A DNA stretch of 61,839 nt, filler included, from Hausera hauseri (Eukaryota), in assembly GCA_046269625.1 (NCBI GenBank). It is 10 parts of 10 records of this genome, joined end to end, with 100 filler letters (N's around TTAATTAATTAA, not from the genome) between each part and the next. Parts side by side here need not be neighbours in the genome. Positions count along the whole stretch, not along the records: positions 1 to 5,050 come from JBJURY010351157.1; 9 more parts are not named here. One strand, given 5' to 3'. The translations under genes were made by a program, and so were the position numbers. A model generated the notes under the pieces. That model was not told the DNA's origin. It ran no database searches and saw only the letters and a program-made list of their open reading frames with translations. Positions 1 through 61,839 of the stretch are shown piece by piece (within the stretch, counting starts at the first letter, position 1; the number at the start of each line of letters is the position of its first letter).

Positions 1-669
1 GGAAATATATGCCTCTTTGAAATCACCTTCAGAATTCTCAAAAAGAATCTCAAGACCATATTGAACCTTACAAGAAGAGAAACGAGACGTATACATGTGA
101 AAGGTGCTTAGAATTTCTTCAGGTGGTCGAACAGAAATAAGATGGTCGGGCGCCACATCAAAACACAAACGGACATATTTATTTCCAAGAACAGTTTGTA
201 CAGTTAATTTTGTCGCTTTATTTTCAAGTCTCTGTTTCTTTTTTGCAATCTTATTGTCCTGGATTTTACGTTTGACTGGTTGTTGTTTACTTGTTTGCTG
301 TACACTTGGTTGTTGTTCAATTGGTTGTTCACTTTGTTGTTGTACACTTGATGAGGGAAGTTGTTGGTCTAAGACAAACTGTTTTGCCATATTGATCATT
401 TGAGCATGTTGTTGCAGAATGGTTTTTTTTGGGTTTTGTGAACATGGTTAGGTGATGTCCGTGGCGGTTTCTGAACTCAGTGAAATTTGCTCCTGACAAT
501 ATTTCACATGTGGGGCAAATGAAGAACTGATATCCGCTGTATTGTACTCCATAGTAGCGAGACATAGTGTCTTCACATTGTTGGTGTAGTTTGTCGGTGC
601 AATAATTGAAGTTACAATTCTATAAATGGATATAAGAATAAAACAATGAAAAAAATAAAAACATACCAT
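1..669 (-). CDS. N-terminal part of a Polinton/Maverick pPolB precursor (Cys/His module plus terminal-protein region); runs off the contig end; one homopolymer frameshift
   Basis: ATG at 669-667, then a GT..AG intron at 666-620, then NCNFNYCTDKLHQQCEDTMSRYYG..FICPTC..HGHHL. After a +1 shift at the A8 run (430-423) the frame is open to base 1 (..KVQYGLEILFENSEGDFKEAYIS). The same module precedes clear pPolB genes in contigs 2 and 9, and contig 9 also has the FENxxGxxKxxYI motif. Confidence 0.7.
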
Positions 670-795
670 CTTGAAAAGAAGATAATATTTGTCAAATAAA
701 ATGAATATTTCACTTTTATTTATACTATTTTTCATCCAATCAAAATCGAGATAGAAAAAATATATATATTTCTCTAACTTAATACAAATCATACC

Positions 796-1029
796 ATGTT
801 TGAACCAACAATGAATTTCTGTACGATTTGTCAAGATGAAATAATAAACTTGAATGTACGACCAGTCAGATGTATTCACCGATTTTGTCTACCATGTATA
901 AGGAAATGGATCAAAGAAAGAAATGTTTGTCCTACATGTCAGAGAAGCAGCCTATATTTTGCACTGTATACTGATATTGGCAAATTGATAAAAGTTGAAT
1001 ATGTAGAAACATTTATAAATAAAAGTTAA
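796..1029 (+). CDS. Small C3HC4 RING-finger protein (putative viral E3 ligase)
   Basis: CTIC..CIHRFCLPC..W..CPTC. TATA-like run at 761-768 upstream and AATAAA just before the stop. Confidence 0.85.
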   Translation: MFEPTMNFCTICQDEIINLNVRPVRCIHRFCLPCIRKWIKERNVCPTCQRSSLYFALYTDIGKLIKVEYVETFINKS

Positions 1030-1047
1030 CACATAGTACAATATTTA

Positions 1048-1620
1048 TTACAACAATAAACCTTTCTTAAAACATAAACTAAAAACTATTATTATATAAA
1101 TGAATCCTAAGATTGCTACGACCATTGCGAATATTAAACCAATGTCTTCTAGTTTCCATACTTGATGAATTGATAATTGATTACTTTTGGACAATTGTCG
1201 TCTGACAATAACCGTTCGTACCCAAAAATCTGTATAATTATGATGAACAGACAAATACATAACATATTCTTGATTAGGAATTGTTGACATACGCATTGCT
1301 GTAACATCTCTGTCTGTAACAATACAAATACCTCTCTTTAGAGACTTGTTTCTGTATACAATTTCTATCATTAAAGCTGCATTTTTTCGCAATCTGTCAG
1401 TTAATTTTATCTTAATATTGTCGGACATATATCTACATTCATCAATATATATGTTATGCAGCAATTTCTGATCATATAAAATTATTTCGTTTGGAATTGT
1501 ACTGTTCATTGTTTCTTTCATGGAACTTAGGATTGTTTTGTTCACTGTACTGTTAAACGCATTGATTGAAACAGTTTGTGCAAATGTGCACAAAATAATT
1601 ATGTAGGCAATCATTTTCAT
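1048..1620 (-). CDS. Type I membrane glycoprotein of unknown family
   Basis: Signal peptide (MIAYIIILCTFAQTVSINA), several NxS/T sequons, C-terminal TM helix (IGLIFAMVVAILGFIYIIIVFSLCF) and a short basic tail. Intact ORF. Confidence 0.75.
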   Translation of the reverse strand: MKMIAYIIILCTFAQTVSINAFNSTVNKTILSSMKETMNSTIPNEIILYDQKLLHNIYIDECRYMSDNIKIKLTDRLRKNAALMIEIVYRNKSLKRGICIVTDRDVTAMRMSTIPNQEYVMYLSVHHNYTDFWVRTVIVRRQLSKSNQLSIHQVWKLEDIGLIFAMVVAILGFIYIIIVFSLCFKKGLLL

Positions 1621-1785
1621 TTAAAATAATAAATATTATGGAATATTTATACTTTTTATCATTGAAAATGAGCCAATAGAAATGAAGTAACAATATAAAT
1701 AAAGTAACAAAACATTGTGGAAAATAATACAATATATTTTCTAAAATACAATATATTTTCTTAAAATACAACATATTGTCAAATG

Positions 1786-1922
1786 AGCCAATAAAAATCA
1801 TTTAAATCGACAAAACTATGAGCCAATATAAATCAAATAAATCGTCACAACACACATTGTCCAATAAAAATCATTTAAATCGACAAAACTTTGAACCAAT
1901 ATAAATCAAATAAATCGTCAAA
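1786..1922. promoter_or_regulatory. Duplicated ~73-bp unit with four CCAAT boxes
   Basis: CCAATAAAAATCATTTAAATCGACAAAACT..CCAATATAAATCAAATAAATCGTCA occurs twice. CCAAT at 1788, 1823, 1861 and 1896, plus one at 1673. Confidence 0.55.
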
Positions 1923-2159
1923 ACTGAAAATAGTGCAACACATTGTCGAAAACTATATAGTATAATTTCAATGATAAAACACTCATGAAGATATAACAGA
2001 CAAGATAAACTACAAAATTGATGCATGAAGAACATGAGAAGGATGTGTGGAGAAATTGTTTTATAGAAGATTTGTAAATGTACAATAAATCAATATTGTC
2101 TAAGTTGTTATTGTAACATTTTTTTACATATAATTAACACACATAATTTACACATGTAG

Positions 2160-2416
2160 TTATAACAAATGTACATTTGTTTTAACTATATGTGTACAAT
2201 TGTACATATATAGTTAAATCATTTGCACATTTGTTTTAACTATATATATGTACAATTGTCATTTAATTGTACATATATAGTTAATTCAATTGCACATTTG
2301 ATTTAACTATATGTGTACAATTGCACATTTGTTTTAACTATATGTGTACAATTGTACATATATAAATATAGTTAAATCATTTGCACATTTGTTTAACTAT
2401 ATATATATATATATAT
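2160..2416. repeat. Array of imperfect AT-rich palindromes
   Basis: Module TGCACATTTGTTTTAACTATATRTGTACAATTG is repeated with mirrored halves. 2181-2218 (TTTAACTATATGTGTACAATTGTACATATATAGTTAAA) is a near-perfect palindrome. The array ends in (TA)n. Confidence 0.85.
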
Positions 2417-2568
2417 TTGCAAATTATTAAATCAAGAAACATTACGTTGTGGTATATTACGTAGAGTATCTAATATTATTAATTGCAAAACAAGAAACAT
2501 ATTACGTTGCGGTATATTACTTGGAATATATAAGAAAGTGTTTTGTCATTATTTTTCATTATTTTACA

Positions 2569-3708
2569 ATGAACAAAACCAACGCATTTTCCAAGATTAT
2601 GAAGATGAGCAAAGAAACAAAATCCAAATTAATAGTTGCAGCACACGAAATTGAGCAGTCAAAACTACCACCAGCAGAATATGTCCCGATAGAAGAGGAC
2701 ATAATTTCAGTTCCTGAATATAATCCATCAGATCAGTTGAATGAGGATTTAGGGGCTATCGCAAGGAGAATAGGTATTAAAATTTTTGTTTTTTTTGTTT
2801 TTTTGTCAATGTTTATTTTATTTTTAGATAATGTTGATATGGATGCAGTCATTCATCAACTACGAGATGACATGCATCTGACAGAATCAGATTCCGATGT
2901 TGAACCGGAAATGAAGAAAAGAAAACGAATAATTGAACCGTCATCAAAACAAGTCAGGATGACGAAACAGAGACAAGAAGAATTAAAGAAGGCCACACAA
3001 AACATATCAGATATAGAACAGAAAAAGAAAATTACAGATATATTAATGACCAAGTGGCAGAACCAGTGTCAGAAAAGAAGGTATAACAGATTAAAAAAGA
3101 AAAATCTAAACGAAAGTTTCGAATCAGCTGAATTGGACAACGTAAGTGATCCAAAATTTCATGTAAATCTAGATCGGCGATTCGAAATTCAACCGAAGAA
3201 GAAACAGGATGAACAGAAGAAAGTGATAACAGAAGAGCAGTTAAAATCTGCTGAGGATAAATTACAAAGTGCGCAAATTGAAATCGAACACATGAAAATG
3301 GTGATTGATGGTTATCTAAAAACCATCCACAATCAAGGGCAAACTATTATGAAATTGAGAAACGAAAATCTGTCAATGAAAAAAAACAATTGTGTTCAGG
3401 GAATGAAAGTGTTGGCGGATATGGGAATAAACACCAAACAAGATACTGCAGAGAAACGAATCAACACAGGAAAAGAAACTGTAGAGAAAGGAATAAACAC
3501 AGAAAAAGATACTGCAGAGAAAGGAATAAACACAGAAAAAGATACTGCAGAGAAAGGAATAAACACAGAAAAAGAAACTGCAGAGAAAGGAATAAACACA
3601 GAAAAAGATACTGCGGAAAAAGGAACGAACACAGAATGTCAAAAATCAACAAATGAAAAAAAGAATGTGAAATTCAGTCATGTAAAGAATTGCACCATCA
3701 ATTTTTGA
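2569..3708 (+). CDS. Basic/coiled-coil nuclear-type protein with 7 x 11-aa C-terminal repeats; probable 54-nt intron at 2774-2827
   Basis: TATATAA at 2527, ATG at 2569, T-rich GT..TTTTAG in-frame intron, KKRKR NLS-like motif, heptad region and (E)KGINTEKDTA repeats. Confidence 0.8.
   Translation: MNKTNAFSKIMKMSKETKSKLIVAAHEIEQSKLPPAEYVPIEEDIISVPEYNPSDQLNEDLGAIARRIGIKIFVFFVFLSMFILFLDNVDMDAVIHQLRDDMHLTESDSDVEPEMKKRKRIIEPSSKQVRMTKQRQEELKKATQNISDIEQKKKITDILMTKWQNQCQKRRYNRLKKKNLNESFESAELDNVSDPKFHVNLDRRFEIQPKKKQDEQKKVITEEQLKSAEDKLQSAQIEIEHMKMVIDGYLKTIHNQGQTIMKLRNENLSMKKNNCVQGMKVLADMGINTKQDTAEKRINTGKETVEKGINTEKDTAEKGINTEKDTAEKGINTEKETAEKGINTEKDTAEKGTNTECQKSTNEKKNVKFSHVKNCTINF
3415..3636 (+). repeat. 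33-bp coding tandem repeat (7 copies)
   Basis: Period GGAATAAACACAGAAAAAGATACTGCAGAGAAA, encoding GINTEKDTAEK. Confidence 0.95.
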
Positions 3709-3710
3709 TC

Positions 3711-3775
3711 GAAAAACCGGTCCTCTTTAGGGCCAAAATAGAGAATGAAAAACCGGTCCTCTTTAGGGCCAAAAT
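3711..3775 (+). promoter_or_regulatory. Two tandem histone-mRNA-type 3' stem-loops (3719-3734 and 3755-3770)
   Basis: Two identical copies of GAAAAACC-GGTCCT-CTTT-AGGGCC-AAAAT: 6-bp stem, 4-nt loop, A/C-rich flanks. The first stem begins 10 nt after the stop codon. Confidence 0.7.
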
Positions 3776-4019
3776 TTTTGATTGAACATTATTTCTTTTG
3801 GTTTTATTTTATTTGGGTTTTATTTTGATTTATTTTGGTTTTAACTTAGTTAAAATTGAATTATATATTTTGTTTTCTTTTGGTTTTAACTTACTTAAAT
3901 TTAATCAGTCTGAGAAAATTGATTTTACATAGTTATCACAAATATACACACACACAAAACTTTATTTCTATTCGTTGAAAAAAATATATAACATATGGAA
4001 TATTTACAAATTATGAAAA

Positions 4020-4457
4020 ATGTTTTGCACAATTTGCCTACAAAAATCACGCACAGAAACCGCCGGAATGAGTACTTGTACTCATAGATTTTGTCTGCAA
4101 TGTTTTTCTCAATGGGTAAAGCAAAGTGAGTCGTGCCCACTATGCAGAAAAGAAGATTTCTATGTTTCAATATACAAAAATGGATCCCTCGAGAAGATAG
4201 TGGATATAGAGCATTTGGACAAAACCTGTAATACAGGTTTTACAGTACAAATATATAATTGTCGCCAAGGACACAAGCAGTGTTTGAACTGCTTTATCGA
4301 CAGATCCAGCATATGTTGTGCAAGATGTAATGCACAACATCAGAAGGTGCTGATATTCAATTCTGATGAAAAAATGATTGGTGTGAACCTCATTACGAAC
4401 CTGTGGAAAATGGGCGATAACGGATGGGTAGATGATATGTTAATAAATTTTATGTAA
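4020..4457 (+). CDS. RING-finger protein with a second, degenerate RING-like Cys/His cluster
   Basis: CTIC..CTHRFCLQC..W..CPLC followed by CRQGHKQCLNC..CCARC. AATAAA at the stop. Confidence 0.85.
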   Translation: MFCTICLQKSRTETAGMSTCTHRFCLQCFSQWVKQSESCPLCRKEDFYVSIYKNGSLEKIVDIEHLDKTCNTGFTVQIYNCRQGHKQCLNCFIDRSSICCARCNAQHQKVLIFNSDEKMIGVNLITNLWKMGDNGWVDDMLINFM

Positions 4458-4550
4458 ATAAATTTTATGTCTTAAAACTTCTTCATTGGATGCATACATA
4501 TAGGAGAAAAGTATATATACATAACTCATAATGTATAATATTGAAAACAA

Positions 4551-4850
4551 ATGCAAACTCCAAATTTATACTATTTAACACTCGAGGATTTTTCTTATTT
4601 GTCTCCAGATGTAACAATGCTCACTTTATCAGTTCCAATTGTTCTGCAATGGACTAATAACATGTTTTTCAACTTTACAAAACAAGAATGGAAACGCAAC
4701 ATACAGATTTTCGATGTTGGAATAGATGGATCGAAGAAGATAGTGTTAGCAAAAGTCGGAAGAAATAAGTATATAGATGTGAATAATCTGTATACTCAAG
4801 TTGCTGTTGTTGAGGAATATGTTAATATGAGAAAAGTTCCCGCTGCTTAA
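4551..4850 (+). CDS. Hypothetical protein (element accessory gene)
   Basis: Intact 99-aa ORF with TATA-like sequence upstream and AATAAA overlapping the stop. Confidence 0.55.
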   Translation: MQTPNLYYLTLEDFSYLSPDVTMLTLSVPIVLQWTNNMFFNFTKQEWKRNIQIFDVGIDGSKKIVLAKVGRNKYIDVNNLYTQVAVVEEYVNMRKVPAA

Positions 4851-5050
4851 TAAATATTTTTTTGTCTATTTTGTGTTATATACATTTGTAAACCCTTTAT
4901 CGAAAACACAAGACATTTTTTCATAAAATACATTTATTTCATTACACATAAAAATACATATATTTCATTACACATATTGGCTTATAAGCCATTCTATACA
5001 GTAATTTCCACACAACATAGTCAATGGATTTTGATACATAATGTTATTGT

Positions 5051-5150: not shown

Positions 5151-5453
5151 TCATTTCTGGTGACGAAATTGGAACGTATGCGACAATCCATCACATACAA
5201 TGATATGCATCAGAATCCATGGGACTTATTGTGTAAACTGGCTTAAACGCCAATATACATAAAATTGTTGTAAACGTTGTTGTGTTAATAAATGTTTTGT
5301 TGAAATAATGTCTGTATTATTTATTGACTTGGAGGGACTTGTGGATGATAATAATGAATACATGAAGAAGTTATGTATAATGCCACTGGTTAATATGCTT
5401 AATCCACTGCATTATGTATTTGCGTAAGTGAATTTCAGTATATTAAATGCAAT

Positions 5454-5705
5454 ATGTGCTATTTTAGACCTTCAGAACAGTGTTGCACAAACAACGCACA
5501 AGCGACAAATGCTTATTCGACAAACCATCATCAAAAACTGACATGGGAAGAATATACTAACCAGTTTTGCAGAGATTGTCTTAAGCGAGATATTGGGAAC
5601 ATGTGTGATATAAATGAATCCATGTTGTATGTCAAAGATCATTCTGATGAGCGAAAGAGGAAGATATTTAATAGCATATTTCCAGAATTGCTAATGTGCA
5701 TATGA
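5454..5705 (+). pseudogene. Cys-rich hypothetical gene fragment convergent on pPolB
   Basis: Exon-like ORF (TTTTAG acceptor near 5467) with CRDC and further Cys/His residues past the stop. No family recognised. Confidence 0.3.
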
Positions 5706-5935
5706 ATGTAACAAATTGGTAACTATACCAAAGAACATTACATATACTTATTGTGAACATAGATCACTTTGTGCATATAAAGTGTTTACCGTTATGTCAT
5801 AGTTAATTAGTTGGTCTTATCCTATATAGTAGTTATTTACTTTTACTTGGCCTTATCCTTTATCCCACATTACTTGGTCAAGAAGGCAACACGATATTTC
5901 TATACAACATTTACTAAACAAAAAAATAACAATAT

Positions 5936-8900
5936 CTACAATGCTACATGTCCGTGAGGTAGCGTGTGGATTCCATAGTTCAGGATATGCCTATTTTCGT
6001 CCATCCAATCTACGCTTTTCTTATATAGAGTTACTGTTTGAATGTTATGATCCTTAGATTGGATCATTTTCACTTCCGATATGTGATTCTGCTTTTGCAG
6101 GACTGTCACAATCTTCAAAAGTGATCTTGGACAATGTAGCCATTTGAACCCCTTTTGCACGCTTCTTTATTTGGCCACATATGTCTAGGGCATACATTTA
6201 AATCTGATAGCTACAAATCTCGATATTATTGCTCCCTTCACTTAGTCTTTGAATTTTTCAAGGACTTTCTTATTTGCAGTCTGAGGTATCTATGTGTTGA
6301 TCTAACTGGGCAAAGTCCTCATAAATGCCTTCTGTATGGATCTGATAGATGAAACTATCAGTATCCATATACATCAGCTGCATGTACTTGAACTTGGGGA
6401 CCATGATGTAGTTGAAATGGTACATCACGGTCTTTGACAGGTCGAGGATTGCCATACCCACATATGGGCTTGTTGGATACCAAGGATGTATGATGCTGCT
6501 GTTGAATTTAGGCTTGGCAATAAGCTTCTTTGCTCGCTTTCAGTCGGAGAGCAGTTCGATGTTGATCCTGTTTCGGCTATTCTCCATGGTCTTGCCAAAG
6601 ATCGAGTTGTTGTAAAGCTTGAAATGGTCCTTCTCAAAATGGTTTTTGGCAGTAGTCCACAGATTCGTATTGAGATCTATGTAGGGCTTCAGCCACATGG
6701 ACTGGCTGAACTGCAGGGCTCTGTTGATCTTGGTAATAGGAAGTCCATGTCTAACTGCCTGCTGGAGATTGATGTAGTGGACTACATACTTCTCCCTATT
6801 ACCCAGATGACAGAGCAGCTTTCTCAGCTTGCCATGGGGTGGAGGCTTGCTCTCAAGGAGGAAAGACAGCTGTTGATGGCTCGCGTGGATGGAAGCAAGA
6901 TATTCCATAAACACCTCTAGTATGTATCCCATATCTCCAGTGGTATCGAAGTCCAATATAGGGATGTTTTCAGGATTCTCAACCCATTTGAAGTTATCGT
7001 ACGGCCCAACTCATTTCTGGAGCCTTAAAGAAATGAGCTGGATCTAATGCATGGCTCTTAATTGTAACGTCCCTGAAGCCCTCAAAGACATCTGTCAGCA
7101 GCAGGACGTCCGTCTTGAGGTATATATCGCTGAATTCAGACGTTCTGGGCATGCTGGTAGTCAGAATCACTGATATCGCAATCAGAGAGGGTACTGTAAA
7201 AGTCCATGTCCGGCAATGAGGTCTCATCCCGTGTTTCCCATGAGGTTATGTAGTCATAAGGAAACACGCCTTTCCTCTTGACGAGGTCACATGCAGTGTG
7301 GAAGAACCTCTTCGTCTCCTTGAGTTCTTCGGCAGGCAGGTTCTTCACTAAACTGTCCAATGACGAGTTCATGAAGCGGAAGCTGTCTATGAAGCGAAGT
7401 CTGAAGCGGCCCACATGCTTGGTAAAAGTGATGTATTTTTCCTCACTATATTACCATCAATGTTGCCTAATTCTCGGACTATGAAATGGGAATCATAGCC
7501 ACTGAGATTATGGAACACTACAGGCACATATTTGCATGTTTTGCAGCGAAGATTGCAGTTGTTGCATGCTGCCCTCGACATGCACCTGTAAAATGGCAGT
7601 GATCCTTGACTTTCCAATTTCCCTTGTGAATGGTTTGGAGCACAAGTGACATGCTGTTGCCTTGCGCCATTCATCTTGTTTCCACGACATGCTCATATTA
7701 TACTTATGCTGCTAAAGCATGTTTTCAAGCATATGAGCCATGTCTTCCAGTGGTTTCATGAAATGTGCTCTGCGCCTGGACCTCTAAATAGATATGGTTC
7801 ACTGTCCAGTCTTTTGGCATACATATAATATGATGAGAGGCCATGATATTGGTATGCCGCTGTGTTGCTGTGTTGAGGACTAAGACTGCATGTCAGAACT
7901 GGTCCGAGAATAGCTTCAAAGTCGCAAAAGATAACCATTGGGATCTTGATCTCCTCGAACTCCTCGTTTGCATATTTCGATTCTTGTTGTGTTTCGTAAT
8001 TTGAGATCTGACTAGACGCTCAAAGTTCTTGATCCAAACATAATGTTTCTTTTCCCCATCATCTAGTAGAAGCAGATCCCTATGATCTTCCAATTCATTA
8101 CCATATATCTGCATGAAATAGAATTTATCTTCCTCATCCAATCCAATGATGTTAATGGATATATTGTTGATTCGACTGAACTTCTTAATTTCATCTAAGG
8201 ACGGAGGGAATGTAATACATTGGAAGTCATAGTTGTGCTGCACATCATTATATTGCCAAATTCGTGAAGCATTATGTTGATCAGACACGAGTTTTGATAG
8301 AATGGCATACATGAAACACATGTTGTCATCATTAAGGAAATTGATTCATGCTTTTTTATTAGCGATCCAATCAGGGAGCTGAATATATGAACTACCCCGC
8401 ATGGACGATAATCTGTGCACATACACAAGCAATCTCTTGATGGTTTCCAGAGTCCATCCGCTCTTCTTACTGTGGCTCTCATCGGCTTTACGGATCAGCT
8501 TTGCATGCACCTCATTCAGACATTCTAATATATTGGTGGCTTCAAAAATGGTTCTTTTTCTGGTCTTGAAGGCCCTTTTGGACTTTTAGCCATCAACATT
8601 GACGTATGTGGCCTCAAGTTTCATATTAACCGTAAGGACCTTGTGCTCAACTATGTTGTCCTGGAGAATCCCTATTGTTTCTTCCTCTGTGTACTCCAGG
8701 AATTACCTGATGGTTGTTTGACCAGTTGCATCAATGACATTTGCGGCATTTCCTCCTTAATGATTCAGCATTAACTGGCCTGTCTTTGACTCCTTGATGG
8801 AACCGCTACGCCTAATGCGCATGATGCGCGTTTTAGTCCTGCATCAGGCTGTACTGCTGCATCTGGCTGTGGTACTGCATCTGGCTGTCGTACTGCAAGT

Positions 8901-9370
8901 TGTGCAACTGGCTTATGCTCATTAAAGATGATCTTTTTTGACTTTGGTGCGAAGTCAGTCAAATGATGTTTGTGATATTCATAAAACTCTATGTAATCTC
9001 CATCACATACAGCCTCACATCCTGGGCAGATATAATAAATGCTCCTATTGAATTTGTGTCCATAATAGCTCCACATGGTATTGTGGCAATTCTGAGAGTT
9101 GTGTATTGCACATGTGCAATACACATGAACTGCATCTTTAATTTTCCTTTGGTACGAAAGTCATTATTGGCATATTGGTTTGTCGGCTTGGTAAAGGAAA
9201 TCAAGTGCCATCTATGGACACTGTAAAAGTCTTCATAATTGGTTTGACACTACAGCACATGTAGGGCATATATAATACTGTTGTAAATATGGCCAGTATT
9301 TCATCATAATACTGTGGCAATTTTCAGACTCATGGATTTGAACCAAGCATTCTCTGTAAAGTTTGCACAT
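5936..9370 (-). pseudogene. Polinton/Maverick protein-primed DNA polymerase B (vOTU + EndoVII type), multiply frameshifted
   Basis: Motifs in order: SGWTL..RGSSYIQLP..NDDNMCF, HYVWIKNFERL, ExoI VIFCDFEA, CHLC..CNNCNL, FHNLSGYDSHFI, FIDSFRFM..SLDSLVKNL, KGVFPYDY, YLKTDVLLLTDVFE, KLYNNSIFGKTMEN, YMDTDSF and C-terminal TLPHGH. Confidence 0.95.
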
Positions 9371-10167
9371 CTAAAAATCAACCAATTACTTGACGAGGAC
9401 AATTAAAAACTCACCATTCGTTGAAGTGATTTTTAAATAATGAAAAATATAGTCATATCACCATGTACTGCTCCGATTATTGATGGGTTTTTGTTAGTAG
9501 ATAGCGTCTCTACCATCCCGACCTCAACATCACTTGATGATTGTAAGATTGAATTATCCATAAGATATTATAAAAGTTTATATACACTCAATCAATGAGT
9601 CTTATTTTCATCCTTTTTTGAATTTCGTGACTTTCTATTGGCTATTTATTGTACTAACTTTGAATTAAATTTAAACGTTAATATCCGTTTCAATTCCTCC
9701 TCACATCCACCTCCTTTAAGAAATTTCGCAGTTTTTCCACATTTCTTTCCAGGATTCTGCCGTCCGCGTGTTGCAGTACATATCGACGGTCGTGTTTTCT
9801 CTCGATGACTTCGTATGGCCCTTNNNNNNNNNNNNNNNNNNNNNNNNNNNNNNNNNNNNNNNNNNNNTTAATTAATTAANNNNNNNNNNNNNNNNNNNNN
9901 NNNNNNNNNNNNNNNNNNNNNNNCACCACTCCACAACAAGAAACTACAGACGTTGCCACAATTCCTCCTATGCTACCAATGGGAAGTTTCCGAAGACCTT
10001 GTAAACCGACCTCACCATCTACTTCTCCCAGAAAGAAACACCAACAAACCCAAACTCCCCGATTTAGGCTTTCTGATAAAGCGGCTTAGACAGACCCTGA
10101 AACTCTCGCCATGGCTCCTGGTAGGTCGGGCATGGCTGCCAACACCTAGGCAGGTAGGGGGCTTCCT

Positions 10168-23663: not shown

Positions 23664-25399
23664 CTTCCCACTATAAATACAAGTGCAATAAGCACTCACA
23701 CACACAAGAACTTATTCGATTTCATCGACGACTATTAACATAGGTTAGGTCCTATGATAATTTGTGAAACCATTATTATACTCTTAGATTAATAATGGCT
23801 GGAGAAAATACTACTCATGACAGCAGTTTACTTGGAGATACAATCGGTAAAATTTTCTTTGGTTTACCTATGATATTTTATTTATTTTTTCTGTAAAATT
23901 TGTTTTATAATAAATGTGTTTAAATAATAAATCGAGATTTGATGTGAAGACTGGGCTGCGTTGGATAATGTGCGTAGAGGGGATTAAAAAATTCGAAAAT
24001 AGCGATTACTGGACCTCCGAAAATTCTTCGAATTATTCGATTGACAGAGATACGTACGAAAGTCGGAAAAGGATCGACGAGCATGAAGATTCGTGATGAT
24101 AAGATACATGATAATCCATTAATATGACAGATGATCCATTCGCCTCAAATGTGGAAGAATAAAAATGATCTTGATGGTGATTATATGAATGATTTGATTA
24201 TAATGGTTTTGTGGTTTTCGATCACAATTGCAGATTCTATTAATAACAGTATTATGTCTGATCTGTTTATCGAATTTAGTGTGAAGGCAGTTGAATTTGG
24301 ATTGTTTTATTTCAGTAAAATCATGGGAGTTTACCAACATTATAGGAGACGATAGGTTGACAGACTTGTGGCAAACCGCGTTCACGCAATATCAATTTGA
24401 GTTGTAGTTCAGCATCGGATGATATAATTTACATTGTAGTTCAAGTTATGAAACTAATTGCGAAATTGTATAAACTATTAACATTTTGCATGTGTCGTTA
24501 CAATTACGAGCTGCGTTTATTTATGATTGTAGATTTATATTTAGACACAAGATTATTTGTTGGTAGATTTTATATTTGGACCCGAGATTTCCGTTATAAA
24601 CGGACGCAATTCTAAATTTAGGAATAGGGTCAATGCTGTAATGATTCGATGGAGACAAGAGGTAAATTTACATGATCAACCAGTACATTTTGGGAACATT
24701 GGAGAGTCGGGACTTACTGTGAATAATAGCGGAATTGATAACTATTGCCTTGCACTTTAACTGATAAAAGAAATTTGGGAAATAAGAGCAGAATCGACAT
24801 AAGCGATTATTATTTTGCATTTTTATTGATGAGATAAAAGATATTGGGAAAATAACAATGGAATTAACATAAATGATTACTGTTTCGTATTTTGGTTGAT
24901 GAGATAACATTATTTGAAGATCCGGATTTAACTTAGAAAGTATTAAACATTTGGTGAAAGCCTTTGGGCCATTGTGGTTCATCATCTAGTCAGAAGAGTA
25001 GATTTTTTGAGGGACAAGTTAAGGTTTGTGTTTGTTTGAATTCAGATCATCTGATGTTTTGTGTTTACTTTACCCATACTAGTTGCACGTTGGATCACAG
25101 AGATCACCGATGTCAATCAATCAAACTGGGCTTGATTATAGGGATCTATACATGTACATGGGAAGATACATATTGAATAATATACCAAGGATCAGTAAGG
25201 ACATACATTTCCAGAGAATACATAGCTTGTTATCATGCCCCAATAATTAAAGGCGCAGGTATTCCGCATACCGAACCGCCATCGGACTCCCCTTCAGATT
25301 CAAATAAAATTTATTTATATGTTACTATGCAAACCTATGGAACCTCAAAACGTCCCAATATTTCGCCTACCTTGAATACGATACAAAATAGTAACATAT

Positions 25400-28388
25400 A
25401 AACTGGTGCCCCGAGTGAGGAAGCCTTTCTTCGTCGCCATTTCAGACGCTATGGACCGATTCAACTTGTCATTCCGGATTCGGAATATCTCTGTGCTCTT
25501 GTGCAATTTGATTGTGTTGAAGATGCTCAACGGGCTTTGCAGGAAACGAGAGATCGATCTAATAATAATAACAGCAATGACAACGGCAATGCTAATAACA
25601 ACAGTGGCAGCAGCAACAATAATAATCGTAAAATGCAAGTGGATTTTGCGAGCAACGAATATCAAGTGGCTTTTATGAATCGTTTAAAAAAAATCATGTT
25701 CAACGGAATTTTTGAAGAATTATGCTGATCCCTATCAAACAGAAAAAATTCAAAATCTCCTAATATCATGCAGTAAGTATCTTGGCCTACTCGAAGACTC
25801 CTATAAGTCCTATGATCGCTATGAAAACAAAAGTGATTATGAAGATTATGACGATTTGTATCCAGGTCGGTCATCCAGACATAGAAAATCAGTACATCAA
25901 CGACTATATGGTGAAGGTTATGAGCGAGAAGATGATTACAGCGATGAATATCATTATTCAAAACAGAGCAGTAGACATTACGATGATTATTCGCCAAGTC
26001 GATCACCAGTTCATTATTCTCGGTCCAATCAAAAATTTGCAGGAGATCAGTATAACGAGTCCCATTCACGTAGGCAAAATTATCAACGATATGATTATTA
26101 CGATAACAAACACGGTTCATCGTCAAATAACCACTACTATCGACGCAGTCCTGATCAAGAATATGTGGCAAATCATAATCGCAGCTTTTCCCAATCTCCA
26201 ACATCATCCATTGATTACTTGGATGACCATCGATATAATTTATCACCCAAACGCTATAGTCGGAAAGACTACAGAACTAGTAGGTCAAGACCTATTGATG
26301 TATATGAAAACCGCAATTTGCATTTTGATCGCACATCGGAGCAGCGTTCATTGAATAAATCATATCGATATGATGAATATTTATCTTTCCGTTCAAAATC
26401 CCGAAGCAAATCGAGATTTTCCGATAGTTTTTCACCATTTCCACAAACATCACCATCTATTCGACAACGTGCACGGAAAGAAATCGTTGATGATTTCCCT
26501 GTTTCATCTATATCAAAATTCGGACATTTGGGTAAAACTATTTCTCAGAACAATGACAAACCATCCATGTCAAGCGCTAAAGGAAAAAATAGTGTTTCAT
26601 TGTCTGCTATATCCGTGGAAAGTGACATAACGAAGAGCGATATTATTTCATCTTGCGATAATCTACAGTCTGCAGATACTTTATCAAAACTTGAACGAGA
26701 AAGAGCTAAATTACTTCAAGAGCTATCACTTTTGGGCGAAGAATCCACTAGCTCTACTTCCCTCAACACAAATAAGTCAAATATTCAATCCACTTCAAAG
26801 GACAGGGAAGTTGAGATAAAACATCGAAAGACCATCGTATCTGTGCCATGTATTGACAATGTTCAAACGATAAAAATGCCGAGTCCAAAAGATGCAAAGG
26901 CTGTATACAGTGATACTATTCCCACGAAATTAGATTCTTCTGAACATTCAGTTGATAGTATATCTAAAGAATTAAAGGAACATCCCCAAAAGTTTCCTTT
27001 GGTATCATCGTCGTCTGTAGTAACATATCACAAAGATTCTGTACTTTGTTCAAAATTGTCTCATGATTGTCATGTATCAGTTGATTCTTTGAAAGAAATT
27101 CGTCCGACCATGAATTCTGATGAATCTACTATCGTATCAGAAAATAAGCAAACGATCGATTCCCAAGACGTCTGGTCTGTGTCGGAATCGACGGTAATAT
27201 CAGACTATTCAAGTTCACATTTGTCTCGGGATCCAAGACTATTTTCATCAAGTTATCATTTGCGTCAGATATCGTCAAGTTTTCCATCACAAGGACTTGA
27301 TTTAAGTCTTTCAATTCCGTTGATAACGTCAACGACAGTTTCAACCAGTCCTACTACACCAACACCAACTACAAGCAATTATAAAGATTCTACAAGTGAT
27401 TCTGATGGCGATCATTTGGGTATAGAATCTGAACTTGATAAGCGAATTAGGGAGTTGGATGCAAAGCTTAATCGGAATGAACAGACAAATCGCACGTTAG
27501 ACTACAGCAAATTTCGCATTCGTAAACGCAATCAGGACGGCTCAGGAATTGGTACTTCGACATCGTCAGTGTTACTGTCACCGACATCCAGTTCTGGTGT
27601 TATTGGTTCGTGCATAACTACAACGTCAAATTTGCTCGACGTTGGATACACAACGACTAGCCGCGATCTTAGTTCAAATACATCAGAGTTTATAAAAACC
27701 ATGCTCAATCAAACAAAACCAAAAATTATCATTTGTTATGTGAAACAAATTCAGATCATTTATCTGCTTCATTGAGTGCAAATTATCCATCTGTCGTTTC
27801 AACAACAGCTGCTTCGTTGTCTTTTAGGACCGTTGATTTAGGTGCAAGCGAAATTGAACGGCGTTCACTGCTGTTAAAATATACTTCATCATTATCAACA
27901 AATCCGCTAACTATTTTTGATACCAAAGTCAGTATTGAAACTGAATATGTTAGCCCGACTATTAATACATACAGTACAAGAATGAATTCTGTTACTAGTT
28001 GTACAACTTCATACAAACCAGTGATATCGGTAACTTGTTCTCCAACTTCTTTGGTTTCAACTGTTTGTGTTCCAACAATTCCAACTGTTTTATCCGAGCC
28101 AAATCAACCCGTGAAATCTATCCTTAAGAAGTCAACAGTAATTCCGCAGAATATTATTAACAATCCCAGTAAACCTTTCACAAAAAATCCAGATATATCA
28201 AGTGGACAGTATAAATCTCCGTCGTCACAGGAATCAGTTAATACAACAACCACAACAGAGTCAGCTGTTAGCACCCAATGTGATCCGGAGGACCGAATCC
28301 TTCTCAAAAAAGGGAGAACTGTTACGACTCCTTAAACAACATTTTGGTCAAACCTCTTGGTGATGACTTTATTGATTAAACTGTACCT
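25400..28388 (+). pseudogene. spen: Split-ends/SPEN-like gene: last RRM plus Y/R/D/S-rich and S/T-rich regions; frameshifted and partial
   Basis: SEEAFLRRHFRRYGPIQLV..ALVQFDCVEDAQRALQET..MQVDFASNEYQVAF matches the SPEN RRM (RHFxRYGP..DFAxxExQxAF). It joins ORFs 25712-27775 and 27733-28335 through single-base shifts in A-runs. Confidence 0.7.
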
Positions 28389-38800: not shown

Positions 38801-41800
38801 TTATTCCTTAGTATTCTCTACCATAATTTTTTTGATTAAAACTTCATGAGATAAGTTGCTTTTGTTCATTTTGAACCGAAATGTCCTAATTATCCTTGCT
38901 GCGTCGTATATTGCCTTTTCCTTTTCATCTAACATCTCGGTTCTTTGTCCCGAATAGTTCACTATTTTTATAATGTTTCTCAGCAACTCGTTTAACTCTT
39001 CGCTATTGGAGTTAATCGCTGTCATGTATAGTTGTCTTAGTTCTCGTATCAGAGCTGCACTTTGGTCAATATCATCTGTTATTTTTCTCGGCTTTCCAAC
39101 TGGTTGTTTCTGTTTCGGCGCAGTTGGTATTGCTTCACCAATCGGTACTAGGTTCTTATCGTATTGTTCATTATCTTCTTCACTCTGGAGGTAGTCAAAA
39201 TACATGATAGGGTCTCTGACTCCCATAATGCGTCCTACGCAATGTTCATCCCTCGCTTTTCTCGCAGCCTCATCTTTTGTCTGTTCGTTGGTAATTATAG
39301 CCACTATTCGATTTGTTTCCCGTGGAAAAATTACGACATCTATTAGTTGCTCAGGTTCCTCCAGTATTCTACGTCGGAAATATAACCGATACCTTACTTC
39401 ATCTTTTCCACCGTTTCGTACTATCCATTGCTTTACTTCTCTAACCGATGTCATCGTCGTGCATACAATTTCTCTTTTCCATCCATTCAGCTGATATTTT
39501 CACCTTAATCGGCGTTTCGGGTTTAGCTTTCAAGAAATCAGCGTATTTCTTTATCAATAGTCTGGGTACTGAGCTATAAACGGTATTTTCGCTTGATAGT
39601 TTGGTTTATGTAGGGACCAATTGTCTCAGTTTGCTCTACGTCATGTTGACGTTTATCTGCTTAATTAATTCTCTCTCGGTCCGTGCGGGATCCAAGAGAA
39701 TCTCCATATCAAATCGTCGGTCTGTTAGAAGAACATCATTTTGTTGAAGTTGGATGGGTGTTTTAGGGTTTTGGTTGTACACATCTTCCAAATATGCATC
39801 CCATCCTGAGTCGTTCGTGACGTCTGGAAACCCATAATCCAACAATACCGTGGTAGCTCTTCGAACATTTTCGCGCATCTCGTTTAATCTCAACTATACT
39901 TCTCTCATTAAGTTGGTTCGGAACTTTGCTCCATTTCCACACGCAAGTTATATTGTTTTTAATGTCGGTCCTAGTTTATCTGTAGGGAACAACACTTTTC
40001 TTTCGTAACCTTTTAATTCGGTCGTTACATCCATAAACCATCTTTGTGCGAATTCTCTTTTATTCGTTAACTTTGATTGTGTGATCTTATATTTATTCTT
40101 TTAAGTTTCCAGTTCTTTGTCTAATTCATCTAGCTTCGTAGCTCTTTGCTTTGTGCGAATTCGCAATTCTTCTATATCTTTAACTTGAATTGTCAGTTGT
40201 CGTGTCTTGTCGTCATCTATTTCTGCAATTGTCGATAGTAGTGATATTATTTCGCGCATTTCTTTTAGAGTCTTCGAATTTGGATCAATTTCTTCAATAA
40301 GTCTCTTTACGAATTTAGCATCGTCTGGTGTGAGGCGATGATCTTTGGTCATTTCTATTAATTCAACGTGACAATTTTGGTCGGTATCTGATGCCCACTT
40401 AAAAAGACGGTGTAGATATTTTAATACTTCTTTTAACGCGGTCAGATGATTTGGGCAAATATCCAACGTCGATAGATCACATATGGATATTTCATCTATG
40501 GGCCTTGTTGCCAACTGTAGTACACCGTCTAGGCGGACACGTTTTAGTCTCATCGATAAGGAGGAGATTTTTCCCTGTTTCGCCGATAATTCTATTTCTT
40601 CGACCATGGTATACAATTCTTCTGTGAGTTTCATTTCCTGATTTCTACTGATAAATTTTAACCTCGATAATGCGCTAAATTTAACTCAAGGGTTTGCCTC
40701 TATTTTGTAAGCATCTAGGTTACGGAGTATTTCCTTTAACTGTTGTTTTAATATCGGTTCACATTCAGAATACTTCTTCAGACGATATTTCGTTAAACTC
40801 ACTAATCTGTCTAACGCTTTAGTCCATTCTTTGAGTTGGTTATCTATCATTGGTTTTGCGTTTATTAAGTTTTCTAATCGTTCGAAGGCGTTGTTCAATT
40901 TATCGTCTGGACCTTTAATATAGTCAATTACTCCTTTAACGTAGTTAACTTCCTTCTTGTATTCGTCCAGTTTTAAAATACATGTTTTTGTTATGTTTTG
41001 TACTTCTTGGTTCTCTGCATACGTTATTTTATTCCTACATCTGTAGATTTCGGAGCGCCTTTTATCTTGCGAGGCTATGCGAATTCCTGTCACCATATTC
41101 TTTGCGTGCGCTGTACGCGATCTTACACATTTCCATTATGAGAGGAATGTCTACAGGTTCTATTCCTAGTATTAAAAATTCGTTTTCATCCAATTTGTTT
41201 ATTAGTTTATTTTTGATGTGATAGATTACTGCACTCTCTATTTCTGTCATTAACCTCTCTAAATTCCGTTTCGTTCGCTTTTTTTTTGGATCCGCCTCTA
41301 ACGTCTTTAGTATTCCTTGGGCATTCACCACTTTACTTTTAATTTCTATCTCTTGATTATTCCATGTGTCGGTGAAGTCGATTCGGCTTTTTCTCCATGA
41401 ATCTAGTTTTGTCTTCCATTCTTCAATCAATTTCTCCACAATTTTATTCACTTCCTCTAGTTCTTTTTCCCTGCTAACGTCTTCTTTAAGGTATCGTTTA
41501 AATTCTTTATACATTTTTTCGACGAAATGCTGTTCTTTTCCAGACACATCTACCTAAATTTTTATATGCCTTAATTCTTCCAGGATGTGACGTATCGTCT
41601 CCGTATCTGTTGGCGCCATCCTAATTTCTTTTAATTTATCTGCATTTTTCCAGGACTTTCTAATCCTCCACACTTTTCCGTTTAGCTTTTTAATTCGCTC
41701 CGTACAATCAGTTTCGCTTTCACTATCGGGCAGTGGACATATCTCGTTTATCTCACTGTTCGCGTCTCCTACTGTTACGCTTAAACTTGGAATATCTGGA

Positions 41801-46594: not shown

Positions 46595-47149
46595 NNNNNN
46601 NNNNNNNNNNNNNNNNNNNNNNNNNNNNNNNNNNNNNNTTAATTAATTAANNNNNNNNNNNNNNNNNNNNNNNNNNNNNNNNNNNNNNNNNNNNCAGGAG
46701 GCGGAAGAAAAACGGGAAATGTGCAACTGGCAACGCAACACATGCATTTGGTGTACCGAAGTTTTGTAGAGGTAAAATTAATGTTTGCAAGTCGAATGGA
46801 CACGGTTTCGTCGTCGTCCGACCTAGGGAACACGGGGAAAACCAGCTGGGACAATTTCCGTCGGGTAAAATATCCCCTGTTCAAAGCGGCCGGTGATGGA
46901 AATGGGTCCGGTACATTGCCCATAAGTTGGGGAAAACTTCATATAACCGCCTCACGATCAGACCAATGGATCCGGGTGAAAAACACATTTTGTAAAACGT
47001 CAAAATCGTCATTTTCGTTTTGTGTTCTGTAAATGCGTTCGTTTTATTGTAAAAATCTCTGTCGTGAATTTTATTTTGTACGACGACGATTAAAACCGAA
47101 CGGTTAATAATAAATTACAATTGCACTATGAGCATGAGCTCATAATTGA

Positions 47150-47450
47150 GCACTATTCATAAGGAGAATGCTTATGACCAAAACTGCAATGCTAGTAGTA
47201 GTAGTAGTAGTAGCAAAGGTGACACCTCAGACCGTGTACCACAAATGTAACAAAGGTAATGAAACGATATAACAATACATGGTAACAACAACAACAGAAG
47301 CAATATAGCAAGCAGTATATTTCAAAATAACAAAAACTGTCTATCCAAAAGTTCGAATACGTTTAGTCAGTGTTCACATTAATGTCTGAGTACTACTACT
47401 ACTCATAAGGCGAATGATTGTGACACCTGAGACCGTCTACTACAACCTAA
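47150..47450. repeat. Direct repeats with (AGT)n and (ACT)n tracts
   Basis: CATAAGG(A/C)GAATG..TGAC and GTGACACCT(C/G)AGACCGT each occur twice. (AGT)n at 47194-47213 and (TAC)n at 47391-47403. Confidence 0.6.
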
Positions 47451-47974
47451 TGAGTACAAAATTTGTAACTAAGATATTGGAGTTATGTGGCGAAGCACAC
47501 ATTAATTCTGATTTGTTTTCTCATTAGTGTAAACGTTATTCCCGATACAGCGTATGTTAAAAGCACTGTTTACACAATCAAGTGTCTAACGTAAAACTAT
47601 AACCATTCACACACAAACATATAAAATATCATTGCAGTTAGGTTATTGTCATTTCAAAAAATCATTATTACCGAAAAATGGAAAATGTAAGTTTTATTGA
47701 TTATTAATTTTATTTGGTATCAGTTTATTTTATTATATTAAATTTTTATTTATAAATTAAATTATATTTTATTTATGAAAATTTTGTTTTTAACCAAATT
47801 CCGGACAACATTATTTCCCCACCTATCTGACTATAACAAAGAGGCATATCGCCAAGTCTTAATAGAACATTTATTTCCCTTTGTTTTGTACAACAATAAC
47901 AACAATAATTAAATCGTTTCTAATGAGTTAGGAGTACACAAACCACATGGGTTAACAAATTCCGTATGAGAATG

Positions 47975-61055: not shown

Positions 61056-61839
61056 GTTGGATTTGACGGAAATGAAGAGTTAGACTGGTTGTGGTACCGT
61101 ACGGAAATTCAATAAGGTAGCCCACGTCACATTGGATATTCACTTCAAAATTGTTTATAGATGAAGATGCCACAGGTAGGTACATTGGATTATCGAGATT
61201 GAAAGTGACATTGTCACTGGCAGTATACTTTCTGCTTTCCGGATAAATTGCACGGAGTAGCGGTACACGTACTCCAATGACAAAAATCGGTTCGGTGGCA
61301 TTCACGTAAATGTACATTTGACTTAGTCCCGTTTTCAGTTTGGGTTTGAGTGTTGCAACATATGCCGCCGCCGTCGTCTATGTCTCAAACCATTGTTTTT
61401 CAAAACCCAATACCATGGCCAAAGCTTTGTCCAATAAAATGTCAGTAATATCCTTAGCTAGTTCAAATTTAATGTACCATTTGCATCTTATTCGAAAACT
61501 TTAAATATCACCTTGTACATTTGATTTGAAAAAAGTGTTGACATAGATGTGCTACAGATTCGCAATAGACATTGTCTCCAATCAATACATATGAATTTGT
61601 CACCCTTTCTGTTGTATAGGTAAATTTCACCGTCGTTTGGTAATATAGGGGACTTAATCTAGGAGCAACTATATTTTTACATTTAATATTTGTACCTTTG
61701 TACTCTGTATTTCTGTCTCCAAATTTATTTGTTATTTTAATATGAGCCATCTCCAAGGACTCAAAGGTAACAGTAAATTGAAAATCTGCAATAAAATGTA
61801 AGTATTCCCCTAAAATAAAAACACCAATCTTGCCGTATA
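61048..61839 (-). pseudogene. Minor capsid protein (penton), frameshifted; 5' end off the window
   Basis: MYIYVN..EP..VPLLRAI..NPMYLPV..I..FEVNI..G..IEFPYG.T.LTLHFR is the conserved Polinton penton C-terminus. Confidence 0.88.

Follow-up and report, generated by a model that had tools for sequence, protein, structure and literature searches.

An accessory gene of a Polinton-type element in Hausera hauseri (ORF 2569-3708) is followed by two identical, tandem hairpins similar to the one that ends histone mRNAs, at a place where its neighbours carry a polyadenylation signal. The best reading of this arrangement, which we hold with a little more belief than doubt, is that the gene has acquired an SLBP-type, poly(A)-less 3' end formed through the host pathway. 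The window, i.e. the whole stretch of DNA that was analysed (61,839 nucleotides), consists of 11 pieces joined at N runs, mostly N-TTAATTAATTAA-N spacers. Because these pieces were joined artificially, only 1-5050 is tied to the finding, and the Polinton genes elsewhere in the window are unlinked to it. The contig ends at 1 and 5050 bound the view to a 5-kb interior piece, whose features are collected in Table 1.

Table 1. Features of the contig that carries the tandem hairpins
Feature	Position	Strand	Remarks
Polinton-type protein-primed DNA polymerase (pPolB), 5' segment, broken, cut by contig end	1..619	-	
Small RING-finger gene ending at AATAAA	796..1029	+	Pfam zf-C3HC4 E 2.3e-9; AATAAA 1018, 1055
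190-aa orphan ORF, hydrophobic ends	1048..1620	-	Putative membrane protein, from its sequence
Five CCAAT boxes: 1673, 1788, 1823, 1861, 1896	1673..1900	+	Divergent intergenic region; putative function
Upstream motif in duplicate (four half sites of ATTACGT type) and TATA box at 2527	2437..2541	+	Common to many loci
Orphan, non-histone ORF (379 aa if unspliced) with long helices/coiled coil	2569..3708	+	
Predicted in-frame 54-nt GT-AG intron, T-rich	2774..2827	+	Frame also open unspliced
Coding repeats, 6.5 x 33 nt	3424..3636	+	
13-nt direct repeat, copy 1	3701..3713	+	Overlaps stop codon; 12/13 equal to 3774-3786
Histone-type stem-loop 1	3719..3734	+	10 nt 3' of stop
Purine-rich spacer	3735..3754	+	May serve copy 1 as histone downstream element; also 5' flank of copy 2
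Histone-type stem-loop 2	3755..3770	+	46 nt 3' of stop; centre of block common to many loci
Short shared flank to ~3785, then T-rich tract particular to this locus, no poly(A) hexamer	3771..3900	+	
Second RING-finger gene ending at AATAAA	4020..4457	+	Pfam zf-RING_2 E 6.8e-10
99-aa beta-rich gene, family without name, ending at AATAAA	4551..4850	+	
Adenain-type cysteine protease, 3' end, cut by contig end	4971..5048	-	Last 26 codons
Artificial contig join	5051..5150	.	Nothing past join linked to finding

The hairpin GGTCCT-CTTT-AGGGCC is found twice in identical form with a period of 36 nt, both copies being carried by an exact 29-nt repeat (3711-3739 = 3747-3775). As the initial annotation had described, copy 1 lies 10 nt past the stop codon (TGA, 3706-3708) and an exact second copy follows 36 nt further on, with a gap of 46 nt to the stop. 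A loose histone pattern, GGYYYTNNNNARRRCC, matched twice in the whole window versus 0.09 matches expected, and two matches were reached in 1 of 100 shuffles. When the consensus was tightened to require a paired stem and a U at loop position 3, the modelled chance came to 0.008 over the whole window and to ~4e-6 for a distance of up to 60 nt from a given stop; the pair was scored as a single occurrence because a duplication is one event. One could still invoke a chance resemblance followed by a single tandem duplication, since the two copies amount to one event and the Rfam E value is only 0.014 on 701 bases. We consider this extremely improbable, and largely refuted by the low chance near a given stop and by the presence of the block at many loci. 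The hairpin arrangement is real rather than fortuitous, and a function as 3' end is proposed for it from sequence.

On the + strand, no AATAAA or ATTAAA starts between 3592 and 4441, and the 730 nt past the stop are free of either hexamer, whereas all three neighbouring + strand ORFs have AATAAA at or beside the stop (1018/1055, 4442/4457, 4849). This contrast had been pointed out before, as had the AATAAA within the coding repeats of the hairpin gene, of which we count five (3426-3591) when one partial repeat copy upstream is included. A Pol III B-box was searched for within 3301-3800 without a match. Helitron 3' ends consist of a hairpin and, ~10 nt later, CTRR; a Helitron end was considered here and rejected, as there is no CTRR within 25 nt after either hairpin.

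The machinery of histone mRNA 3' ends comprises SLBP, the U7 snRNP and CPSF73, and the histone downstream element (HDE) pairs with U7 snRNA. Replication-dependent histone genes are intronless. The hairpin of the window retains the core positions of the histone stem-loop, namely a G-C pair at the second stem position and a U at loop position 3, both of which are called diagnostic of the histone hairpin in an excerpt of 10.64898/2026.10.14.759114. The same excerpt places the conserved 26-mer 25-60 nt past the stop (median 30); copy 1 (10 nt) is outside this range and copy 2 (46 nt) inside it. Conversely, the purine-rich stretch that had been noticed after copy 1 is present and restricted to that copy: 9/10 positions from +6 to +15 are purines, versus 4/10 after copy 2. 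It begins at +6, and the AAAGA element of three loci from the metagenome scan presented below (L004, L009, and L023) lies farther away, at ~+14 to +19. According to extracts of PMC1635294, the distance between hairpin and HDE is critical and SLBP opens structures that mask the HDE. The 5' flank of the stem, AAAAACC, ends in CC and not AA, as does that of a histone H3 locus (L009, likewise AACC). For human SLBP, the relevant portion of PMC10388802 reports a base-specific contact with G7 and a need for two 5' adenines for full affinity. The loop agrees with the nematode type claimed in the initial annotation: in a section of PMC1924863, CTTT is the loop of the C. elegans histone hairpin, which is followed by AATCC and AATAAA, and C. 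elegans histone genes have hairpin and poly(A) signal together.

A scan with the Rfam Histone3 model (RF00032), which had been suggested as a check, gave a single match (3750-3794, 19.5 bits, E 0.014, 701 bases searched) and none at the gathering score of 34 bits. Genuine histone-gene hairpins scored alike reached 22.1-37.4 bits, most of them also below 34, and the 19.5 bits of the window are below all of these. No histone domain was found in ORF 2569-3708 with Pfam. Because no histone is encoded, the gene is not a member of the histone-mRNA class but may work like one. It is no histone gene end, given the absence of a histone-coding sequence and a score under the Rfam cut-off; that it works like one is a view toward which our judgement tips slightly. 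The histone-type 3' end first proposed for this gene is supported in part, by the linked Polinton context, the core positions, the C. elegans loop, a block kept across loci where the ORF is not, and parallel cases in mobile and virus-like sequences; SLBP binding, a transcript without poly(A) and S-phase timing would be its predicted consequences.

The predicted fold of each 26-mer has a stem of 6 bp and a loop of 4 nt (-8.6 kcal/mol, z -2.5, 0.81 of the ensemble). In the equilibrium fold of the tandem, one long imperfect hairpin wins (-24.9 kcal/mol); the predicted probability of the copy-1 hairpin is 0.8 until copy 2 is transcribed, dropping to 0.09 as soon as this long alternative becomes possible. 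This long hairpin, or the corresponding DNA palindrome, might itself be a termination signal of the virus type, as in Mimivirus and its virophages; the latter are relatives of Polintons and use a hairpin polyadenylation signal, as set out in part of PMC6723459. However, the copies do not have the left outer arm (3704-3715) in common (depth 38-64 at 3702-3713) and the spacers vary. In the Mimivirus and virophage manner, a long hairpin would be kept between copies and found at most gene ends; here, three of the four + strand genes use AATAAA, the neighbours of the hairpin gene among them. Moreover, the hairpins have specific bases that fit the histone consensus and that a generic hairpin would not need. 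A signal of this type is therefore very unlikely in our opinion.

The Polinton context is physically linked to the hairpins because their own contig carries a pPolB 5' segment and a protease 3' end. For the polymerase segment, 332-619 has a tblastn match at 8936-9121, on a different contig of the window (40% over 62 aa, E 2.7e-11); that contig aligns to the Pfam DNA_pol_B_2 region (tblastx E 4e-35), and the matched segment precedes its polymerase core. At the other end, 9/13 residues of the protease equal the end of a protease relic at 59057-59095 (E 1.2e-4), whose upstream part matches Pfam Peptidase_C5 weakly (E 0.003). The 26 residues of the protease end alone had no match in Pfam or PDB, and because the matched stretch is short the protease link is moderate evidence. 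Judged by these genes, contig 1-5050 comes from the interior of a Polinton-type element, where its accessory genes lie, with pPolB and protease on the same molecule. The Polinton-like element of the initial annotation is retained through these two segments and not through the genes beyond 5050. Hallmarks of Polintons are a retroviral-type integrase, capsid proteins, a packaging ATPase, terminal inverted repeats and a target duplication. As for the accessory genes, the 190-aa orphan had no Pfam or PHROG match, and the second RING gene had no relative among viral contigs. Five of the six matches of the 99-aa protein are full-length relatives (31-47% identical); its structure model has a pLDDT of 85.8, and a fold search in PDB and BFVD gave nothing at E<=0.001.

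The other contigs of the window contain retroelement-like and animal-like sequence. One retroelement-like contig (37130-46594) combines a zinc knuckle with a RING ORF and with a fusion glycoprotein gene of the Monjiviricetes type (PF24664), which is broken. A broken RRM gene with many stops, which we take to be Spen-like, lies at 25000-28388, and its Atlas match is to an RRM cluster only. Further decayed Polinton relics with a different gene order are found at 5151-9823, where protease and polymerase are convergent, at 46695-56406 and at 56507-61839, and a tRNA-Ser(AGA) at 57751-57832.

Neither homology searches nor exact look-up returned a homologue of ORF 2569-3708, and its one Pfam match is a sub-threshold coiled coil. 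In the structure model, the residues encoded from 2830 onward form three helices (pTM 0.27). The protein has basic stretches and coiled-coil stretches; we assume one basic stretch to be nuclear-localisation-like and the C-terminal KNVKF to be similar to the PP1-docking RVxF motif, bearing in mind that such short motifs arise by chance. The probable intron of the initial annotation was recovered as a prediction (Table 1). A joint at 2703-2822 in sequencing run X1 was considered as splice evidence and rejected, its ends being different from those of the predicted intron. The duplicated motif with its TATA box is likely the promoter of the hairpin gene. Four of the five CCAAT boxes further upstream are 35-38 nt apart, and this cluster together with the ATTACGT motif before the TATA box presumably resembles the layout of cell-cycle-regulated promoters.

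The region 3660-3830 is represented by 450 contig records in run X1. Summed depth, which is not copy number, is 33 at the ORF end, peaks at 39,449 at 3756-3761 and is ~31 again from 3792. We reason that overlap among short contigs could raise depth by as much as ~31-fold; the block would then stand at between ~40 and 1,200 times the level of the ORF. The hairpin block is common to many loci and the ORF is low-copy. The differences listed in X1 are three, two at 3746 and one at 3753, all in the spacer and none in the stems; 422 of the 450 records are <99% identical, and most of their differences lie outside the difference table. Because depth is no copy number and few differences are listed, conservation of the stems is only suggested. 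At 3746, related copies have A in 9,946 of 18,244 of summed depth, which yields a purine-only stretch. Run X2 has the letter differences of X1 at ~1/40 of the depth and was not counted as independent.

The upstream flanks of the block copies, readable for 30 letters at most, differ between loci and often contain further tandem hairpins. Among the 6 of 36 loose ends listed, four are upstream (53 records), with an agreement of 0.8 at one place and 0.53-0.59 at the other three; another hairpin, or the 3' arm of one, is present in two of these four consensuses, in one case with the loop CTTC. The two downstream loose ends (43 records) are T-rich. The bin of the promoter-like motif (2367-2535), which includes a masked AT repeat, has a depth of 14,002 versus 15 and 236 in the adjoining bins, and larger peaks stand at the two contig ends, which hold the core genes. 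The simplest reading is an element family in which genes diverge between a retained 5' motif and a retained 3' block; the block copies may also stem from a dispersed repeat, or a share of the depth from host histone genes.

These data bear on the proposal that the block is an arrival without effect behind the gene, either a dispersed repeat of small size or the 3' end of a host histone gene that was captured. The block is repeated, with mixed upstream and T-rich downstream flanks, part of its high depth may come from host histone genes, and the 13-nt direct repeat brackets the hairpin pair as a target duplication would. This direct repeat may be a target duplication or the remnant of an older array unit, but its right 13-mer is within the shared block (depth 20,317 at 3774-3779), unlike a locus-specific target duplication. 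Furthermore, the block sits in sense orientation 10 nt past the stop of exactly the gene that has no poly(A) hexamer, the promoter-like motif of this gene is enriched alike, none of the 8 joints listed connects promoter motif and hairpin as in a gene-less cassette, and tandem hairpins occur at 0/17 of the histone loci described below. An inert insertion is, in our view, unlikely.

A metagenome scan with a pattern built from the window's flanks returned 38 loci, consisting of 17 histone genes, 9 DD37D transposase ends and 12 loci that are neither; as the hairpin was the criterion of selection, these counts give no measure of how frequent it is among such elements. Loci were sorted by tblastn of the upstream 450 nt against histones and a transposase taken from the loci themselves, and L032 was reassigned to the last class because its H1 match is weak, of low complexity and distant from the hairpin. 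The CTTT loop is present at 0/38 loci. Nine transposases, maT-like and of the Tc1/mariner type, end in a canonical histone stem-loop (L004:494-532, L008, L013, L017, L023, L027, L029, L030:124-139, and L037:765-780). The DD37D spacing is found in 4/4 of those tested and Pfam DDE_3 in four of the five scanned. They form 5 families with 26-62% identity over the last 95 residues (8/9 aligned; L027 was placed by an identical flank). Their hairpin is 17-25 nt past the stop in eight of the nine, the ninth being frameshifted with the same flank, and AAAGA usually follows at ~+14 to +19; in L013 the first hairpin copy is degenerate. Among 17 loci scored with Rfam, the gathering score is passed by L030 (38.2), L004 (36.1), and the non-histone L003 (38.2). 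L004 and L030 are cleaner test cases than the window because they pass this cut-off and have a standard downstream element. Tandem hairpins within 80 nt occur at 3/38 loci (L004, L013, and L038), none of them a histone locus. We found no report in the literature searched of DD37D transposase genes with histone stem-loop ends.

A further case is a herpesvirus-like contig (L014), which encodes an assemblin (PF00716) and has canonical histone stem-loops at 499-514 and 1375-1390. They adjoin two small divergent genes, one hairpin being 23 nt past the stop and the other at an unclear ORF end; one of these genes has a weak zinc-ribbon match. Histone-type hairpins do recur behind other mobile-element and virus-like genes, and the Polinton locus is an imperfect example of this recurring pattern.

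Other loci of the scan deserve mention. At L038:46-156, a non-histone ORF of 266 residues, for which Pfam gave no match, is followed by three tandem histone-type hairpins and then AAAAGAG. Hairpins that have no histone gene upstream are also present at L003:2716-2731, L015:2036-2051 (an orphan ORF beside an H2B gene), L035:4551-4566, L011/L032, and L036. In two unrelated LINE-like elements (L021:710-725 and L026:4666-4681), the 16-nt hairpin lies in sense orientation inside the start of ORF1, which may reflect chance or translation control. L008:1-1416 has its eukaryotic-type transposase fragment and hairpin between bacterial ssb-like and ABC-ATPase-like genes, a layout that may come from chimeric assembly or transfer. 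L018 (bacterial) as well as L021 and L026 (match in LINE ORF1 coding sequence) were left out of the support. Pattern scans of viral contigs gave 0 loci; another gave 7, none with an ORF of >=40 codons ending just before the hairpin, and five of these seven, a single hairpin followed by a U-tract, were read as phage terminators and rejected.

For the Polinton gene, we propose that transcription would start from the TATA promoter at 2527 and that the predicted intron would be removed by splicing. Host SLBP would then bind the hairpin, and cleavage would occur after copy 1 with the help of the purine-rich spacer; copy 2 may be a back-up or, lying at the canonical distance, the site itself. The predictions have copy 1 folding first while the RNA is being made, and the protein-free full precursor refolding into the long hairpin, hiding both sites. 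For the element, the probable advantage would be that dividing or germ-line cells make one nuclear regulator in a burst and then remove it fast, the neighbouring genes being on ordinary polyadenylation. This reading is favoured because of the CTTT loop, the low modelled chance, the missing hexamer as opposed to three of three neighbours, the block present at many loci, the like enrichment of the promoter motif and the parallel cases. It is weakened by the Rfam score of 19.5, by the split of HDE and distance features over the two copies, by the closeness of the purine-rich stretch, by the CC flank, by the predicted intron, by the lack of a CTTT loop among the 38 metagenome loci and by the long alternative fold.

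Several of these weak points fit another possibility, in which the hairpins bind SLBP without forming an end and act as a decoy, or in translation or decay control, within a longer polyadenylated or read-through RNA; host histone supply would thereby be lowered, or the message tied to S phase. Tandem copies raise binding capacity and are superfluous for cleavage, and neither copy combines the canonical distance with a purine-rich follower. The probable intron and the AATAAA of the downstream RING gene (4442) would permit a longer transcript, and hairpin and poly(A) signal coexist in C. elegans histone genes, as described in PMC1924863 in the section cited above. Nevertheless, the poly(A) hexamer is absent for 730 nt past the stop, the message of a single gene would presumably be a weak sponge compared with abundant histone mRNA, and the transposase cases display the standard layout of hairpin plus AAAGA. 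We regard binding without end formation as clearly unlikely.

Beyond this gene, the SLBP-type reading suggests a wider one, on which our belief and doubt are evenly balanced: animal mobile DNA would have repeatedly taken the histone mRNA 3' end, in a Polinton gene, at least five DD37D families and a herpesvirus-like genome, often in tandem and here with a nematode-type loop that possibly matches the host's. The messages concerned would be poly(A)-less and belong to S phase or to germ or stem cells. If so, histone mRNAs would not be the sole messages of their class, mobile DNA would read the host cell cycle directly, and transposon and virus messages would be missed by poly(A)-selected RNA-seq. 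In text from PMC5100578 and PMC10388802, histone mRNAs are called the only known cellular or metazoan mRNAs with such ends. The literature searched, with subscription journals and Repbase notes outside it, gave no description of histone-type ends on non-histone genes of mobile elements or viruses, Polintons included, which is in line with the lack of a Polinton precedent claimed at the outset.

Compared with known systems, the locus is like a Polinton/Maverick in that a pPolB 5' segment and a protease 3' end flank small accessory genes with RING fingers, and in its strong repetition in X1. It is unlike them in its histone-type 3' end, of which we found none for Polintons in the literature searched. 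With the hairpin polyadenylation signal of Mimivirus and Sputnik, as presented in part of PMC6723459, it shares a virus-like element and a gene end marked by a hairpin instead of AATAAA; theirs serves the giant-virus machinery and leads to poly(A), whereas the hairpin of the window copies a host sequence-specific protein site and is found on one of the four + strand genes. The C. elegans histone hairpin, bound by CDL-1 according to an excerpt of PMC1924863, has the same CTTT loop; unlike in C. elegans, no AATCC or AATAAA follows the hairpin of the window. From the histone mRNA 3' end in general, the locus departs in that its gene belongs to a mobile element, encodes no histone and probably has an intron, in the tandem copies, in the C at loop position 1, the U-G pair and a score below the Rfam cut-off, and in the division of HDE and distance features between the copies. 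It is alike in its stem of 6 bp, its loop of 4 nt, the G-C at stem position 2, the loop U3, the U-A top pair, the flanks, which are A-rich although CC adjoins the stem on the 5' side, the site just past the stop (at 10 and 46 nt) and the ending without a poly(A) hexamer.
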